This document shows, piece by piece, positions 31,703 to 62,495 of a stretch of DNA of 64,000 nt. This DNA comes from Octopus vulgaris (taxonomy: Eukaryota). The number at the start of each line of letters is the position of its first letter. Position 1 is the stretch's first letter. The DNA lies in assembly GCA_951406725.2 (NCBI GenBank), contig OX597838.1:31000001-31064000 (forward strand), given 5' to 3'. A program made the position numbers and the translations under genes. A model generated the notes under the pieces. That model saw only the letters and a program-made list of their open reading frames with translations. It was not told the DNA's origin and made no database searches.

Positions 31703-32201
31703 TGGAAGCACTCCGTCGGTTACGACGATGAGGGTTCCGGTTGATCCGAATCAACGGAACAGCCTGCTCGTGAAATTAACGTGTTAGTGGCTGAGCACTC
31801 CACAGACACGTGCACCCTTAACGTAGTTCTCGGGGATATTCAGCGTGACACAGAGAGTGATAAGGCCGGCCCTTTGAAATACAGGTACAACAGAAACAGG
31901 AAGTAAGAGTGAGAGAAAGTTGTGGTGAAAGAGTACAGCAGGGATCACCACCATACCCTGCCGGAGCCTCGTGGAGCTTTTAGGTGTTTTCGCTCAATAA
32001 ACACTCACAACGCCCGGTCTGGGAATCGAAAGTTGTGGTGAAAGAGTACAGCAGGGATCACCACCATACCCTGCCGGAGCCTCGTGGAGCTTTTAGGTGT
32101 TTTCGCTCAATAAACACTCACAACGCCCGGTCTGGGAATCGAAACCGCGATCCTATGACCGCGAGTCCGCTGCCCTAACCACTGGGCCATTGCGCCTCCA
32201 C
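31703..32201 (-). mobile_element. SINE family C (tRNA-Arg-like head gtggaggcgcaatggcccagtggttagg), with internal duplication
   Basis: A/B boxes; TSD tttcgcgcc; homologous to 49181-49696 and 60748-61131. Confidence 0.85.
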
Positions 32202-32530
32202 TTTCGCGCCGCTAATGATAAGACTGCGATGATTCTAAACCGGCGGCGTCGGTGATGATACGGCAGAGAGATCCTTGTTTGTGTACACGAGTAGTTTGTT
32301 GTCGAGTGGCCAAACTGGTGGCGACAGAATAACATTGGAATCTGTCTCGTTCAGGGTGTGTATCAGCTAATGAATCGAGTTTTTGGACCTTAACTATTGA
32401 GTAAAGGTGACGAACGGTGATATCATAGAAGCGTCCCATCTGCTAGGCCATTTCCCCCAATGGATCGGTGCGGATCATCGTGGAAGAGCTGGTTCAATCA
32501 ATACTCATCGAACTGAAGTGGGCATCCGGA

Positions 32531-33975
32531 ACGTGGAGAGACTACGTGGTCGAATTTCCGTTGACGGAACGTGGAGAGTCCGTGAGATCGAATTTCCTGC
32601 AACGGAACATGGAGAGTCCGTGAGATCGAATTTGCATCAACGGAACATGGAGAATCTGTGAGGTGGAATTTCCTTCAACTAGGCTTACAAAGAATAAGTC
32701 GGGGTCGATTTGCTCGACTAAAGGTGGTGCTCCAGCATGGCCACAATCAAATGACTGAAACAAGTAAAAGAGTAAAAGAGTCTGTGAGATCGAATTTCCT
32801 TCAACGGAACGTGGAGAGTCTGTAAGGTGGAATTTCCGTCGACGGAACGTGGAGAGTCTGTAAGGTGGAATTTCCGCCGACGGAACGTAGAGAGTCTGTA
32901 AGGTGGAATTTCCGTCGACGGAACATGGAGAGTCTGTAAGGTGGAATTTCCGTCGACGGAACGTGGAGAGTCTGTAAGGTGGAATTTCCGTCGACGGAAC
33001 GTGGAGAGTCTGTAAGGTGGAATTTCCGTCGACGGAACGTGGAGAGTCTGTAAGGTGGAATTTCCGTCGACGGAACGGGGAGAGTCTGTAAGGTGGAATT
33101 TCCGTCGACGGAACGTGGAGAGTCTGTAAGGTGGAATTTCCGTCGACGGAACGTGGAGAGTCTGTAAGGTGGAATTTCCGTCGACGGAACATGGAGAGTC
33201 TGTAAGGTGGAATTTCCGTCGACGGAACGTGGAGAGTCTGTAAGGTGGAATTTCCGTCGACGGAACGTGGAGAGTCTGTAAGGTGGAATTTCCGTCGACG
33301 GAACGTGGAGAGTCTGTAAGGTGGAATTTCCGTCGACGGAACGTGGAGAGTCTGTAAGGTGGAATTTCCGTCGACGGAACGTGGAGAGTCTGTAAGGTGG
33401 AATTTCCGTCGACGGAACGTGGAGAGTCTGTAAGGTGGAATTTCCGTCGACGGAACGTGGAGAGTCTGTAAGGTGGAATTTCCGTCGACGGAACATGGAG
33501 AGTCTGTAAGGTGGAATTTCCGTCGACGGAACGTGGAGAGTCTGTAAGGTGGAATTTCCGTCGACGGAACGTGGAGAGTCTGTAAGGTGGAATTTCCGGT
33601 CGACGGAACGTGGAGAGTCTGTAAGGTGGAATTTCCGTCGACGGAACGTGGAGAGTCTGTAAGGTGGAATTTCCGTCGACGGAACGTGGAGAGTCTGTAA
33701 GGTGGAATTTCCGTCGACGGAACATGGAGAGTCTGTAAGGTGGAATTTCCGTCGACGGAACCTGGAGAGTCTGTAAGGTGGAATTTCCGTCGACGGAACA
33801 TGGAGAGTCTGTAAGGTGGAATTTCCGTCGACGGAACGTGGAGAGTCTGTGAGATCGACTCTCCATCCACAGCACGTGGAGAGTCTATGGAGGTGGAATT
33901 TCCCTCATCGGAACATGGAGAGTCCGCGAGATCGAATTTCCGTCGGTGGAACGTGGAGAGTCTATGAATTCGAAT
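32531..33975. repeat. 38-bp minisatellite (ggagagtctgtaaggtggaatttccgtcgacggaacgt), about 27 near-identical core units plus diverged edge units
   Basis: Direct reading; each unit has the 14-bp palindrome ttccgtcgacggaa; a SINE A 3' fragment is inserted at 32678-32780. Confidence 0.97.
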
Positions 33976-34376
33976 ATCCCTTCCTTGAAGCGTGATACCC
34001 ATTTCTATTCAGTTCTTTCTGAAAAAAGAAAAAAAAAAAGAAAAAGAAAAAAAAACCGCCTTTTCTGTACAAATCACAAATGTGTCGAACAAGTTTTGAC
34101 AGCTTTGGAACGTTGATTGAAAGCAAAGACAATCAGGTGTCGGAAATGTTCAAATTTGTTTTTTTCTACCTGGCACTCCACCGTCATACGTCGGAAAAGA
34201 TCTAAAATTTATTCAAATTTCAAGAGCGATTAAGCAAAAGCTGCAGAGGAAGAATTGAGCAAGAAAAGAAAAGAAAAGAAACGAAAAGGTAAAAAAAAAA
34301 AAAAAAAAAAAATAAAAGAAATATCTAATAACCTAATGTTCCATTTACCGATATTTTTATTTGTCGGTCAGGAGGG

Positions 34377-47525: not shown

Positions 47526-48044
47526 ATAACTCGATAAAGGTAAGTACCGGTCGCTTGTGGTATCCTAGGATTCCGAAGTGGGGCCGGCAGGGAACGACCG
47601 TTGGTGACTGGGAACTGAGGTAATCAGTTCAAACGGGTGCACCCCCGAAATTTGTCGGATATTTGTCCTCATTCCCAACGTGGCTCCCTCTCATTGTAAA
47701 ACTGTGGTCACTGTTATTATGTCTGACCGTTTGACCGACGGCTTCAAGTTACCATCTTGTATACACTCTGAAACAGTGGTTCTCAGACGGGGTCCGTACG
47801 GCCCCTGAGGGTTCCTATAAGATTTTGGCGGGGTCCACACACAAGAAAATAGTAAATTAGGGTCCCACAATAGTATTTTAAGGGGCCCTGAAAATATTTG
47901 GTTTTAGATGTATGTATTGGTAATTATTGCAAGCAACAGCCGGGTTTCTTTCTCTAACATTTTACAGAGTTCAACCTACACAAGTTAATGGGCGAAAAAC
48001 ATAAGAATTTTGAAAGAAGTTACTATAAAACTAATTTTCAAACA

Positions 48045-48204
48045 CAGTTCTATATTTAAGAGATGAGGACTATTTACATTTGACGGATATTTGTCTTCAT
48101 TTTGTTTGTTAACACAAACGTTTCGGCTGATGTACTTTCCAGCCTTCATCAGGTGTCTAGGGGAAATTTCGAACCTGGGTTCTCATTCCTAAGGTAGTTT
48201 TCGA

Positions 48205-48278
<74 letters not shown>

Positions 48279-48745
48279 TCACTGCCTGGAATCGAACTCG
48301 GAATCTTGGGGTTAGTAGCCCGCGCTCTTAACCACTACGCCATATGCTCGTGGACATAATAATAATAATAACAACATTAAAAATTTACCTTAGGAATGAG
48401 AACCCAGGTTCGAAATTTCCCCCAAGACACCTGATGAAGGCTGGAGGGTATATCAGCCGAAACGTTGTGTTTACAACAAACAAGATGAGGACAAATATCC
48501 GTCAAATGTAAATAATGTAAATAATGTACATAATTCCTCATCTCTGTAAAATATCAGTGAAAGAAACCTGGCTGTTTTTTGCAATAATTACCAATACATA
48601 CATCAAAACCAAAATATTTTCAGGGACCCTTAAAATACTATTAAAATACCAAGACACCTGATGAAGGCTGGAGGGTATATCAGCCGAAATATTGTGTTTA
48701 CAACAAACACGATGAGGACAAATATCCGTCAAATGTAAATAATGT
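48045..48745. mobile_element. Non-autonomous element: tRNA-like head + (AAT)n + HHR tail; minus copy 48045-48341, inverted headless plus copy 48357-48545, extra tail fragment 48650-48745
   Basis: Head tggcgtagtggtt...gttcgattcc; tail gacac-CTGATGA-a-ggctg...cagcc-GAA-ACGT-T-gtgtt. Confidence 0.85.
48426..48471 (+). ncRNA. Type I minimal hammerhead ribozyme motif (intact)
   Basis: Stem I gacac/gtgtt, CUGAUGA, stem II ggctg/cagcc, GAA, palindromic stem III ACGU, GUU cleavage triplet; variants at 48111-48157 (-) and 48653-48698 (+). Confidence 0.8.
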
Positions 48746-49180
48746 AGTTTTTAAAAATCGAATGGTTATTAGGGTCCACCAGAAGAAAATAGTAATCAAA
48801 GGGGTCCAGAGATAAAAAAAAAAAAACGGTTGAGAAACTCTGCACTAAAAGAAAAACCAGGCCAGGAGTGCAGTTTCTTTACTGACGTTTATTTCCGAAT
48901 GCATGAAAAAGGGTTGGATTGACGAGGTTTTAAGAATGTTGTCTTGTAAGCGTTTATGCAGGAAAGCCAGGATGACATCATCGCGTGGAAAGAGGAAAGG
49001 AGTGGGGGAAAAAACTATTGCAGCAGATGAGACACAACAACCGACCTTTGACACGATGACGCATGTATGACGTCAGCTGAACGTTTCGTCCAGTCGCTCG
49101 CTGGAAGGGGAGTGTGACAAGGAATACGAAAGACTTTAAGCTACATACATGTTACACCTGTATTTATTAATTGTTCAGTT

Positions 49181-49696
49181 GTGGAGGCGCAATGGCCCAG
49201 TGGTTAGGGCAGCGGACTCGCGGTCATAGGATCGCGGTTTCGATTCCCAGACCGGGCGTTGTGAGTGTTTATTGAGCGAAAACACCTAAAAAGCTCCACG
49301 AGGCTCCGGCAGGGGATGGTGGTGATCCAGTGGTTAGGGCAGCAGACTCGCGGTCATAGGATCGCGGTTTCGATTCCCAGACCGGGCGTTGTGAGTGTTT
49401 ATTGAGCGAAAACACCTAAAAGCTCCACGAGGCTCCGGCAGGGGATGGTGGTGATCCCTGCTGTACTCTTTCACCACAACTTTCTCTCACTCTTACTTCC
49501 TGTTTCTGTTGTACCTGTATTTCAAGGGGCCAGCCTTGTCACTCTCTGTGTCACGCTGAATATCCCCGAGAACTACGTTAAGGGTGCACGTGTCTGTGGA
49601 GTGCTCAGCCACTTACACGTTAATTTCACAAGCAGGCTGTTCCGTTGATTCGGATCAACCGGAACCCTCATCGTTGTAACCGACGGAGTGCTTCCA
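49181..49696 (+). mobile_element. SINE family C with duplicated head
   Basis: TSD aattgttcagtt; head repeated at 49327. Confidence 0.88.
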
Positions 49697-58981: not shown

Positions 58982-58984
58982 ATA

Positions 58985-59620
<636 letters not shown>

Positions 59621-59622
<2 letters not shown>

Positions 59623-61131: not shown

Positions 61132-61561
61132 ACTGTACCAATAGCAACGGTAGCAACCCGAACAGAAATGGCAGCAGCACCATCACCAATGGTAACAATA
61201 ACTAGAACGACAATAACAGCCACCACGACAGCGCCAATAACAGCTCTAACAACAACGACGACGATGGCTATAGCACCACCAACAGTGCCAACAACAGCAC
61301 CACCATCGATAATGTCCCCTACGCCAGCATCAACGGCGCCGGCGCCAATACCAACAGCGCCAGCAACAACGGAAGCAGTAGCATGAACATCAACAAAAAT
61401 AGCGTCGCCAACACCAGATAGATCGGATGTTCCGGAAACGCCTTCAAGCAGCGCCTCTCCAACCATAGATACTCATTCAGGATCCAGGAGTGGAGGCACA
61501 AAGCATCCTTAATCAGCCACGTATGGCAGCTGAAAGCCGAAGGAACTCCACACGTAATATC

Positions 61562-61792
61562 TATGTCTTTACTACCCACAAGCGGCTAAACACAGAGGGA
61601 TAAAACAAGGACAGACACACGGATTAAGTCGATTACATCGACGCCAGTGCGTAACTGGTACTTAATTTATCGACCCCGAAAGGATGAACGGCAAAGTCGA
61701 CCTCGGCGGAATTTGAACTCAGAACGTAACGGCAGACGAAATACGGCTACGCATTTCGCCCGGCGTGCTAACGTTTCTGCCAGCTCGCCGCC
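61562..61792 (-). mobile_element. SINE family B
   Basis: TSD cgtaatatc; removing it restores the GIY-YIG frame (PHVISWKIL). Confidence 0.9.
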
Positions 61793-61976
61793 GTAATATC
61801 ATGGAAGATCCTAGAAAATCCAGGTCTCTACATCAATGGGATCAAGTGTTGTAAGCTGTGCATAAACGAACGGACGAATATATTAAAGGACTTTCTCGAC
61901 CCGGGGAGCATCCTCAACTCCAAGACAGAAGTTTCCGGACCCCGCTTGCATTTCAGGAAATTCCTATTATTGTTAG

Positions 61977-62128
61977 GGTTCAGGTCACTGCTTGGAATCG
62001 AACTCAGAATCTTGGGGTTAGTAACCCACGCTCTTAACCACTACGCCACGATCATATTGGTGTAGAGGTTAAGGGCGCGGGCTACTAAACCCAAGATTCC
62101 GAGTTCGATTCCAAGCAGTGACCTGAAC

Positions 62129-62162
<34 letters not shown>

Positions 62163-62164
62163 AA

Positions 62165-62222
<58 letters not shown>

Positions 62223-62235
62223 TAATAACAATAAC

Positions 62236-62288
<53 letters not shown>

Positions 62289-62495
62289 TAATAATAATAA
62301 CAACAACAACGACATCGAAAAATACCTTAGGATTGAGAACCCAGGTTCGAAATTTCCCCAAGACACCTGAAGAAGGCAGGAGGGTATATCAGCCGAAACG
62401 TTGTGTTAACAACAAACAAGACGAGGACAAATATCCGTCGAATGTAAATAATGTAAATGATACACATAATTCCTCATCTCTTAAATATAGAACTG
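61977..62495 (+). mobile_element. Full tRNA-head/(AAT)n/HHR element (62059-62495) preceded by an inverted copy of its head (61977-62049); HHR at 62362-62407
   Basis: Head-to-head palindrome; tail ends cctcatctcttaaatatagaactg as at 48045. Confidence 0.85.

Follow-up and report, generated by a model that had tools for sequence, protein, structure and literature searches.

A tRNA-like head on the pLTR of a Penelope/Poseidon-type element and its probable pLTR-only insertions in the genome of Octopus vulgaris

A 64,000-nt stretch of the Octopus vulgaris genome, hereafter the window, carries three loci of a repeat family in which a tRNA-like head, an (AAT)n tract, and a tail with a hammerhead motif are joined in a fixed order, and the question raised by these loci is what kind of element produced them. 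The original prediction was of a chimeric, non-autonomous parasite, transcribed by Pol III, processed by its own ribozyme, and mobilized by a separate Penelope-like element (PLE).

Comparison of the window with itself by BLAST returned five tail and three head pieces that were 81 to 94% identical, in agreement with the proposal of three loci belonging to one family. The proposed anatomy of tRNA-like head, (AAT)n, minimal hammerhead, and inverted arms was likewise found. With tRNA position +1 set at the first G of the head, the features of the three loci are as follows.

48045-48356, minus strand: locus 1, full arm, with the head from -6 (48356-48273), (AAT)n, and the tail to the long end (48207-48045).
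48357-48545, plus strand: locus 1, opposite arm, comprising tail positions 7 to ~165 after a short (AAT)n, with an intact hammerhead at ~48426-48471.
48546-48648, no strand assigned: locus 1, a 97-nt inverted copy (90%) of left-flank positions 47869-47965, lying between two tail pieces.
48649-48746, plus strand: locus 1, third piece, spanning tail positions 47-144 and reaching the short RT start site.
58982-59621, minus strand: locus 2, headless copy, with ~490 nt of (AAT/GAT)n and then the tail to the short end (59131-58982), hammerhead intact.
61966-62048, minus strand: locus 3, inverted arm, with all of the head from the A box (+8) onward and ~12 nt of spacer.
62046-62127, plus strand: locus 3, tRNA-like head, starting at -3 from tRNA +1, with a decayed A box at 62058-62068 and the B box at 62103-62112.
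62128-62311, plus strand: locus 3, (AAC/AAT)n spacer, the 5' UTR of the PLE unit.
62312-62495, plus strand: locus 3, the "tail," a stretch that opens the PLE ORF and stops at the long RT start site ...GAACTG.
62362-62407, plus strand: locus 3, minimal type I hammerhead within the reading frame, identified from sequence, folds of sister copies, and the architecture of related PLEs.
Parts of that hammerhead: stem I, CUGANGA (62367-62373), an extra A, stem II, GAAAC (62395-62399), and GUU (62400-62402).

Inverted partial arms are present where they were expected, at 48045-48356 and 61966-62048; the latter covers head positions +8 to +77, is 96% identical to the family majority, and overlaps its partner by a 3-nt microhomology. 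The predicted tail and microsatellite were found at 58982-59621, where the predicted head is absent. The A box is decayed in the forward focal copy (62046-62495) and intact in its inverted arm (62036-62048, minus strand). Because the focal core reads CUGAAGA and its stem II is mismatched, the hammerhead motif quoted for the family fits the copies at 48.4 kb and 59.0 kb rather than the focal one. The defined end at ...gaactg is a genuine 3' end, one of two such ends rather than the sole one. The start codon position of locus 3 (62333-62335) is altered in this copy, and between copies of the family the spacer ranges from ~12 to several hundred nt. When locus 3 was inspected for an empty site or target-site duplication, its two flanks proved to come from different sequences.

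Other repeats lie close to these loci. The host repeat around locus 1 (47770-48045 and 48546-48850) is MITE-like. Positions 61800-61966, cut at the insertion junction of locus 3, are a piece of another dispersed repeat (248 candidates, 77 to 85% identity) that looks, by eye, like the terminal part of an endonuclease ORF. At a distance of 170 nt from locus 3 there is also a different tRNA-SINE-like element (61560-61795, minus strand), which has a B-box-like motif and of which similar copies recur in many loci. Elsewhere in the window are a homogeneous 38-bp tandem array (32489-33989; ~30 to 40 units, core 96 to 97% identical) and a 329-nt inverted pair (31703-32031 and 49368-49696), 98% complementary and probably a young dispersed repeat.

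The family is abundant. A copy-number sample of 76 stretches at round coordinates, totaling 759,900 bases of the 2.8-Gb genome in 227 contigs, contained 12 loci with head or tail, and scaling from it gives a genome-wide estimate of ~44,000 loci (95% range, 23,000 to 77,000). It is not a chance match, since the exact head-start 18-mer occurs 2,081 times in the genome and its reversed control 0 times. The expected linkage of head to tail also held: a tail was present in 25 of the 29 other head-selected loci and in 28 of 30 position-ordered loci, defined as the first 30 exact head-start matches along one contig (C1). In the latter set the tail followed directly downstream in 21 loci; 7 others had it separated by an insertion or deletion, reduced to a short start, or carried on the other arm, and the remaining 2 lacked a tail.

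These linkage data bear on the reading that the head and (AAT)n form an independent simple SINE, the tail being a PLE fragment repeatedly inserted into its microsatellite. In its favor, 4 of 30 head-selected loci had no tail within 1.5 kb, and several tail-only copies adjoin the (AAT)n ends of other retroelements. However, all linked copies have the same fixed junctions, which recur in the autonomous element described below, and in several loci where head and tail seem to be apart, a LINE or SINE fragment lies within the spacer and the rest of the copy resumes beyond it (L004, L108, L459, L470, and L471). We regard this reading as highly improbable and largely refuted; it may fit the original gain of the head rather than the spread of the copies. 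The spacer itself looks like an insertion hot spot, and one LINE-like fragment recurs in it, at 91 to 93% identity between L029, L459, and L470.

The autonomous element was reached from a tail-selected locus (L017) in which a second copy lies directly behind a broken GIY-YIG reading frame. Thirty loci were found with this GIY-YIG stretch, and a head detectable by BLAST came right after it in 25 of them; a head could be recognized by eye in 2 more, and in the remaining 3 the sequence breaks off at the head start. The head begins ~40 nt past the GIY-YIG stop codon. Walking upstream from the GIY-YIG sequence led to a PLE-type RT, and at the other end of the ORF the tail continued into it without a break in 8 of 30 loci picked for the 5' part of the ORF, and also in the N-terminal sets. 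The majority ORF runs without a stop for 832 codons, beginning with an ATG at tail position 22 (majority coverage of 14 or more), and in one natural copy 465 aa remain open, with RVT_1 scoring over the cutoff. The tail, which was predicted to have a PLE relative, is thus the first ~52 codons of this 832-aa RT-endonuclease ORF.

Within the majority ORF we found YVDD, CVY..C.C..Y.GET, and two downstream His residues. Pfam gave the GIY-YIG piece no score, and its assignment comes from these motifs and from homologs: longer homologous proteins have the same three Pfam domains, the best being 53% identical and an Anolis protein 40%, and the peptide encoded by the hammerhead aligns with the N terminus of the best relative. 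The element thus has a single ORF with an RT and, C-terminally, a GIY-YIG endonuclease with the CCHH motif, as in EN+ PLEs, and the PLE identity of the repeats is nearly certain. A zinc finger in the RT-endonuclease linker is described in PMC8557442 as a mark of Neptune/Nematis and as absent from Penelope/Poseidon. Read in the majority ORF, the linker has no CX2-5CxxC zinc finger, and by that criterion the element is placed with Penelope/Poseidon.

The unit accordingly consists of the head, (AAT)n, the ORF, and a ~40-nt UTR, so the block originally taken for a parasite distinct from its partner sits whole within the autonomous PLE of the same genome and is its pLTR. The layout is a partial tandem giving rise to pLTRs, with the block following the stop codon and preceding or overlapping the ORF start; L410, L417, and L418 cross the unit junction. 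Long copies are on average 93% identical to the majority sequence and at most 96.6% (67 segments), and none of the long copies examined was intact and full length. A second PLE family, with a 781-aa ORF, came from the first GIY-YIG search and was rejected as the partner, as it does not share the pLTR. That family (L121 to L124, L127, L128, and others) is younger, with many intact ORFs and proteins 95 to 99% identical; it has a linker zinc finger and is Neptune-like by reading.

The 3' ends of the copies form two groups, at tail positions ~144-150 and ~175-181 (~144 and 175-178 by the loose ends of reads and contigs). No LINE-derived tail or terminal A-rich or simple repeat was found at them; they are two sites inside the PLE ORF, ~31 nt apart, one for each inverted arm. 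Head-to-head tail arms occurred in 50 of 99 loci with family sequence, and one long and one short end were paired in 47 of these 50 by hand count (53 of 60 arm pairs), while either arm can extend further 5' (26 versus 26). The inversions anticipated on the PLE model are therefore present, each arm ending at a different one of the two sites. In PLEs, a "tail" of 30 to 40 bp at one end only is described in PMC8557442 and PMC11167929. For an Anolis PLE in vitro, the latter reports two internal RT start sites, 111 to 118 nt into the ORF, with both target strands cut and extended; the short end of the octopus element is ~122 nt from the ATG. The octopus data support the view that two-site, two-strand priming of this kind is also recorded in genomic copies.

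At the 5' side the copies end at the head. Among 62 head-bearing arms from tail-selected and coordinate-spaced loci, 31 stop at -7 to +2, 15 at +3 to +12, 12 deeper in the head, and 1 at -13 (a palindrome artifact), and 3 run into the ORF. Of the position-ordered loci, 24 stop at -6 to +1, and the other 6 extend upstream (a script gave 25 and 5, and L467 was reassigned by eye). Exact 18-mers across the genome fall from 2,081 at +1 to +18 to 352 at -14 to +4, with one CpG in each and controls at 0, and this six-fold drop within 14 nt marks the end of the template. Truncations inside the ORF are, by comparison, scattered over ~1,500 nt in 30 loci. Among 47 nonredundant loci with the ORF N terminus, 10 reach the head, 4 of which stop at -7 to +4 and 3 inside the head; the other 3 continue for 180 to 690 nt into the upstream unit, so read-through RNAs that cross the head from tandem units are also copied and are common among long copies.

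The 5' stop sits 7 to 13 nt ahead of the A box, about the distance at which Pol III initiates. The head start is also a small palindrome, which could favor fold-back and termination. Most 5' ends, however, are at -6 to -3, on its far (5') side, which indicates that the RT passed through it. In L452, L468, and L479 the copy reaches the head start, folds back, and repeats 18 to 28 nt of the head in inverted orientation before the flank, which suggests self-primed extension of run-off cDNA.

The resemblance of the head to a tRNA was borne out as well. The majority head has both A and B boxes, 34 nt apart, and matches a genomic tRNA-Arg, the best of the eight isotypes compared, at 48 to 50 of ~76 positions (scores of 14 to 16, versus at most 8 in 200 shuffles). 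Rfam reported nothing in the window at the gathering score; at a relaxed threshold the head of the inverted twin at locus 3 scored 15.5 bits as tRNA (cutoff, 29). No tRNA was called by ARAGORN, either in the window or in 60 loci, and single-strand folds of the head were not clearly better than those of shuffles (z of 0 to +1.3). An account by Ohshima and Okada in 1994 reportedly deals with octopus tRNA-SINEs and could bear on the identity of the head. The head looks like a local acquisition, since a regular-expression search found no A and B box pair near 79 related PLE loci, many of which have short flanks; the expression was run without a positive control.

If Pol III transcribes the unit, terminators within it are of interest. 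The 2,650-nt majority unit has 0 runs of four or more T on the sense strand and 30 on the antisense strand. For the sense strand, 2.8 would be expected by synonymous codon shuffle (P = 0.027) and 5.0 by a third-position null (P = 0.004), and 3 to 9 are present in each of five ORFs from two further PLE families in the same genome. The zero count holds for the majority sequence; individual decayed copies have 0.41 such runs per kb. Among 61 related PLE loci of 1,500 nt or more, 2 also have ORFs free of T runs, and their pLTRs lack a tRNA head. T-run absence by itself was for this reason rejected as proof of Pol III and is taken as supporting, not decisive. In ~6% of each of two RNA-seq runs, taken by species label, reads were abundant and equal on both strands, with no pile-up of starts or ends and with loose ends at genomic junctions; the depths were not used as copy numbers.

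These observations could also be read as a passenger head, an old tRNA-derived insertion into the pLTR of an element driven by a Pol II internal promoter or by read-through, the 5' pile-up arising from a chance Pol II start or from RT fold-back at the GC-rich palindrome. Known PLE promoters are described in PMC8557442 as internal to the pLTR, read-through copies exist (the 6 of 30 and 3 of 10 given above), short fold-back arms occur at the head start, ORFs free of T runs occur without a head, and a capped RNA would explain translation. Against this, most ends lie beyond the palindrome, the 5' stop fits the geometry of the A box, both boxes are intact and 34 nt apart in the majority sequence, and the absence of T runs spans the whole unit. 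We consider a passenger head unlikely. The head likely acts as an internal promoter for Pol III, putative as yet, that sets the 5' end of the RNA; that RNA starts at the head, with Pol III as the polymerase, is a view we hold with reasonable but limited confidence.

The hammerhead has the form expected of PLEs, with an extra base before stem II and a palindromic stem III. PMC4209133 describes the metazoan PLE minimal motif as having a short helix I, a long helix II, and an unpaired base before stem II. Eighteen hammerhead motifs were found near related PLEs, and the 13 aligned with the window copy share its layout; stem I has at least 3 pairs in 10 of the 14, with the pair identities changing. 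The core and stem II served as search filters and by themselves prove nothing. Folds of sister copies were not clearly better than those of shuffles (z of -0.6 to -1.8), and the Rfam comparison proposed earlier returned no hammerhead family in runs at either gathering or relaxed thresholds. The motif lies inside the first 25 codons of the ORF, and the commonest non-CpG change within the family is at the free N7 position of its core.

Self-processing by this ribozyme, as originally predicted, was not borne out by the copies: neither their 5' ends nor their two 3' ends are at the GUU site, and no RNA-seq ends pile up there in ~6% of the two runs, whose profile is equally flat throughout. Since the copy ends lie elsewhere and a cut would remove the start codon, cleavage by the ribozyme probably plays no part in producing the template. 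PLE hammerhead motifs are reported to be weak, dimer-dependent, or protein-dependent (PMC4209133 and PMC11167929), and PMC11167929 reports that ribozyme mutants left insertion of the Anolis element unaffected.

The observations support a model, which we favor as probable, in which the three loci of the window are pLTR-only insertions of a Penelope/Poseidon-type element whose head is likely a Pol III internal promoter, the stubs likely being cDNAs primed within that RNA and run off its 5' end. The unit would be transcribed from the head through (AAT)n, the 832-codon RT-GIY-YIG ORF, and the ~40-nt 3' UTR towards the next head. The PLE protein would bind near the ORF start and, by analogy with the Anolis PLE, nick both target strands and start RT at two internal sites. 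By the same analogy, two cDNAs would extend in the direction of the RNA 5' end, or halt before it, and be joined head to head via microhomologies. Priming in the first pLTR of the RNA would yield stubs of 250 to 600 nt, and priming in a downstream pLTR the rarer ORF-bearing copies. Read-through RNAs of tandem units may supply the protein, translation from an uncapped RNA being otherwise in question. The prediction of mobilization by a PLE RT and GIY-YIG endonuclease is supported. The stubs stop at the RT start sites, with no ORF sequence 3' of them, and would therefore mostly be dead ends.

A modified form of the original prediction would instead have the stubs themselves transcribed by Pol III and remobilized in trans, as a PLE-dependent SINE born from the pLTR. 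Consistent with this, the stubs keep both boxes and have no terminator, and they far outnumber ORF-bearing copies, ORF body being present in 0 of the 12 coordinate-spaced loci. Tandem tail arrays resembling retrozymes also exist, and retrozymes are argued to be non-autonomous PLE derivatives (10.64898/2026.07.22.740005). Yet no stub-specific subfamily is visible in the sample, and short and ORF-linked loci have the same diagnostic variants and the same age, with 4 to 5% non-CpG divergence. T60A occurs in 40 of 139 arms in short loci and in 17 of 64 and 12 of 31 in two ORF-linked sets; A129G occurs in 39 of 142, 20 of 76, and 6 of 25, respectively; and divergence is 4.0, 4.1, and 4.6%. The ORF-linked sets count all arms in those loci, and in the short sample of ~140 arms no separate stub lineage is visible from these shared variants and divergences. 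Most of the frequent non-CpG variants keep the frame and alter the protein conservatively, among them D/E at the core's free position, one synonymous change, and indels of 9 and 3 nt; the exception, one nucleotide inserted in a run of C (13 of 188 arms), may be slippage. Furthermore, an Anolis PLE is reported in PMC11167929 to require 172 nt of ORF, with starts at 111 to 118, that is, RNA 3' of the RT start site, which stubs would lack. Remobilization of the stubs in trans is, on balance, rather improbable.

Two kinds of tandem array were noted in the loci examined. At L010 (1153-2446), six tail units with short (AAT)n between them and a hammerhead in each form a retrozyme-like array. Contig C29 (L421 to L423, L435, and L448) has, at several sites, tandem ~288-nt units made of the tail and the next ~120 nt of ORF.

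PLE transposition in vivo is poorly understood, and this family offers tens of thousands of naturally made copies in which the two RT start sites and the 5' end of the RNA are preserved. A Pol III promoter would be an unusual mode of transcription for a protein-coding mobile element. If the head is a working one, a coding retroelement is transcribed by a polymerase usually reserved for non-coding parasites, which would raise the testable question of translation from uncapped RNA and blur the division between SINEs and autonomous elements. Automatic annotation would file such stubs as SINEs, although they are PLE fragments. A broader scenario, which we offer only tentatively and judge somewhat short of an even prospect, is that an autonomous, coding retrotransposon exchanged its promoter for a tRNA-derived Pol III one, purged terminators from its 2.5-kb ORF, and sheds tens of thousands of SINE-looking strong-stop cDNAs, being LINE-like and SINE-like in one unit and a route to PLE-dependent SINEs.

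A full-text literature search returned no tRNA-headed PLE and no PLE-dependent tRNA-SINE. A 2026 octopus repeat annotation (PMC13282606) lists 190 Penelope-like families and many unclassified SINEs; its text mentions neither hammerheads nor ribozymes, and its one supplement no hammerheads. The family may be present unremarked in that repeat library or in Repbase or Dfam.

Among known systems, the octopus element resembles Penelope/Poseidon PLEs, such as Penelope of Drosophila virilis and PAc of Anolis carolinensis (PMC11167929), in its single ORF with N domain, RT, and C-terminal GIY-YIG and in a pLTR over the ORF start. It also shares with them the minimal hammerhead where the ORF begins, a pair of 3' ends 30 to 40 nt apart, and inverted truncated arms. 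Unlike them, it carries on its pLTR, immediately ahead of the start codon, a tRNA-like A- and B-box head and (AAT)n, its 5' ends are fixed at the head rather than scattered, the unit has no T4 run, and no intron was noticed in its short 5' UTR. An A- and B-box head, a fixed 5' end, and tens of thousands of short copies are features in common with tRNA-SINEs (SINE2), including the cephalopod SINEs with RTE tails described in PMC5786205. The octopus repeat differs in having no LINE or terminal simple-repeat tail, its microsatellite being internal; in a 3' part that is the 5' coding end of its partner; and in a head that is part of an autonomous element, with no separate non-coding lineage found among ~140 short arms. 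Schistosoma Sm-alpha (PMC6765202) likewise combines a Pol III-type promoter with a hammerhead in one repeat, but Sm-alpha is tandem and cut to monomers by a canonical ribozyme, whereas the octopus copies are dispersed, inverted, and tied to a coding PLE, and do not end at the cleavage site. Non-LTR retrozymes (PMC7229834 and 10.64898/2026.07.22.740005) share the type I hammerhead, the relationship to pLTRs, and occasional tandem arrays. In contrast to their tandem units, octopus copies are mostly single or inverted, with a minimal rather than canonical ribozyme and a tRNA head, and tandem tail arrays are rare (L010 alone among 29 tail-selected loci). Finally, Cassandra, Helenus, and Ajax (PMC10886601) carry a segment derived from a small RNA, 5S or tRNA, in a retroelement terminal repeat; those are non-autonomous LTR elements, whereas the octopus element is a protein-coding PLE. 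The new part is the tRNA-like head on a PLE pLTR, in an anatomy that is otherwise that of known PLEs.
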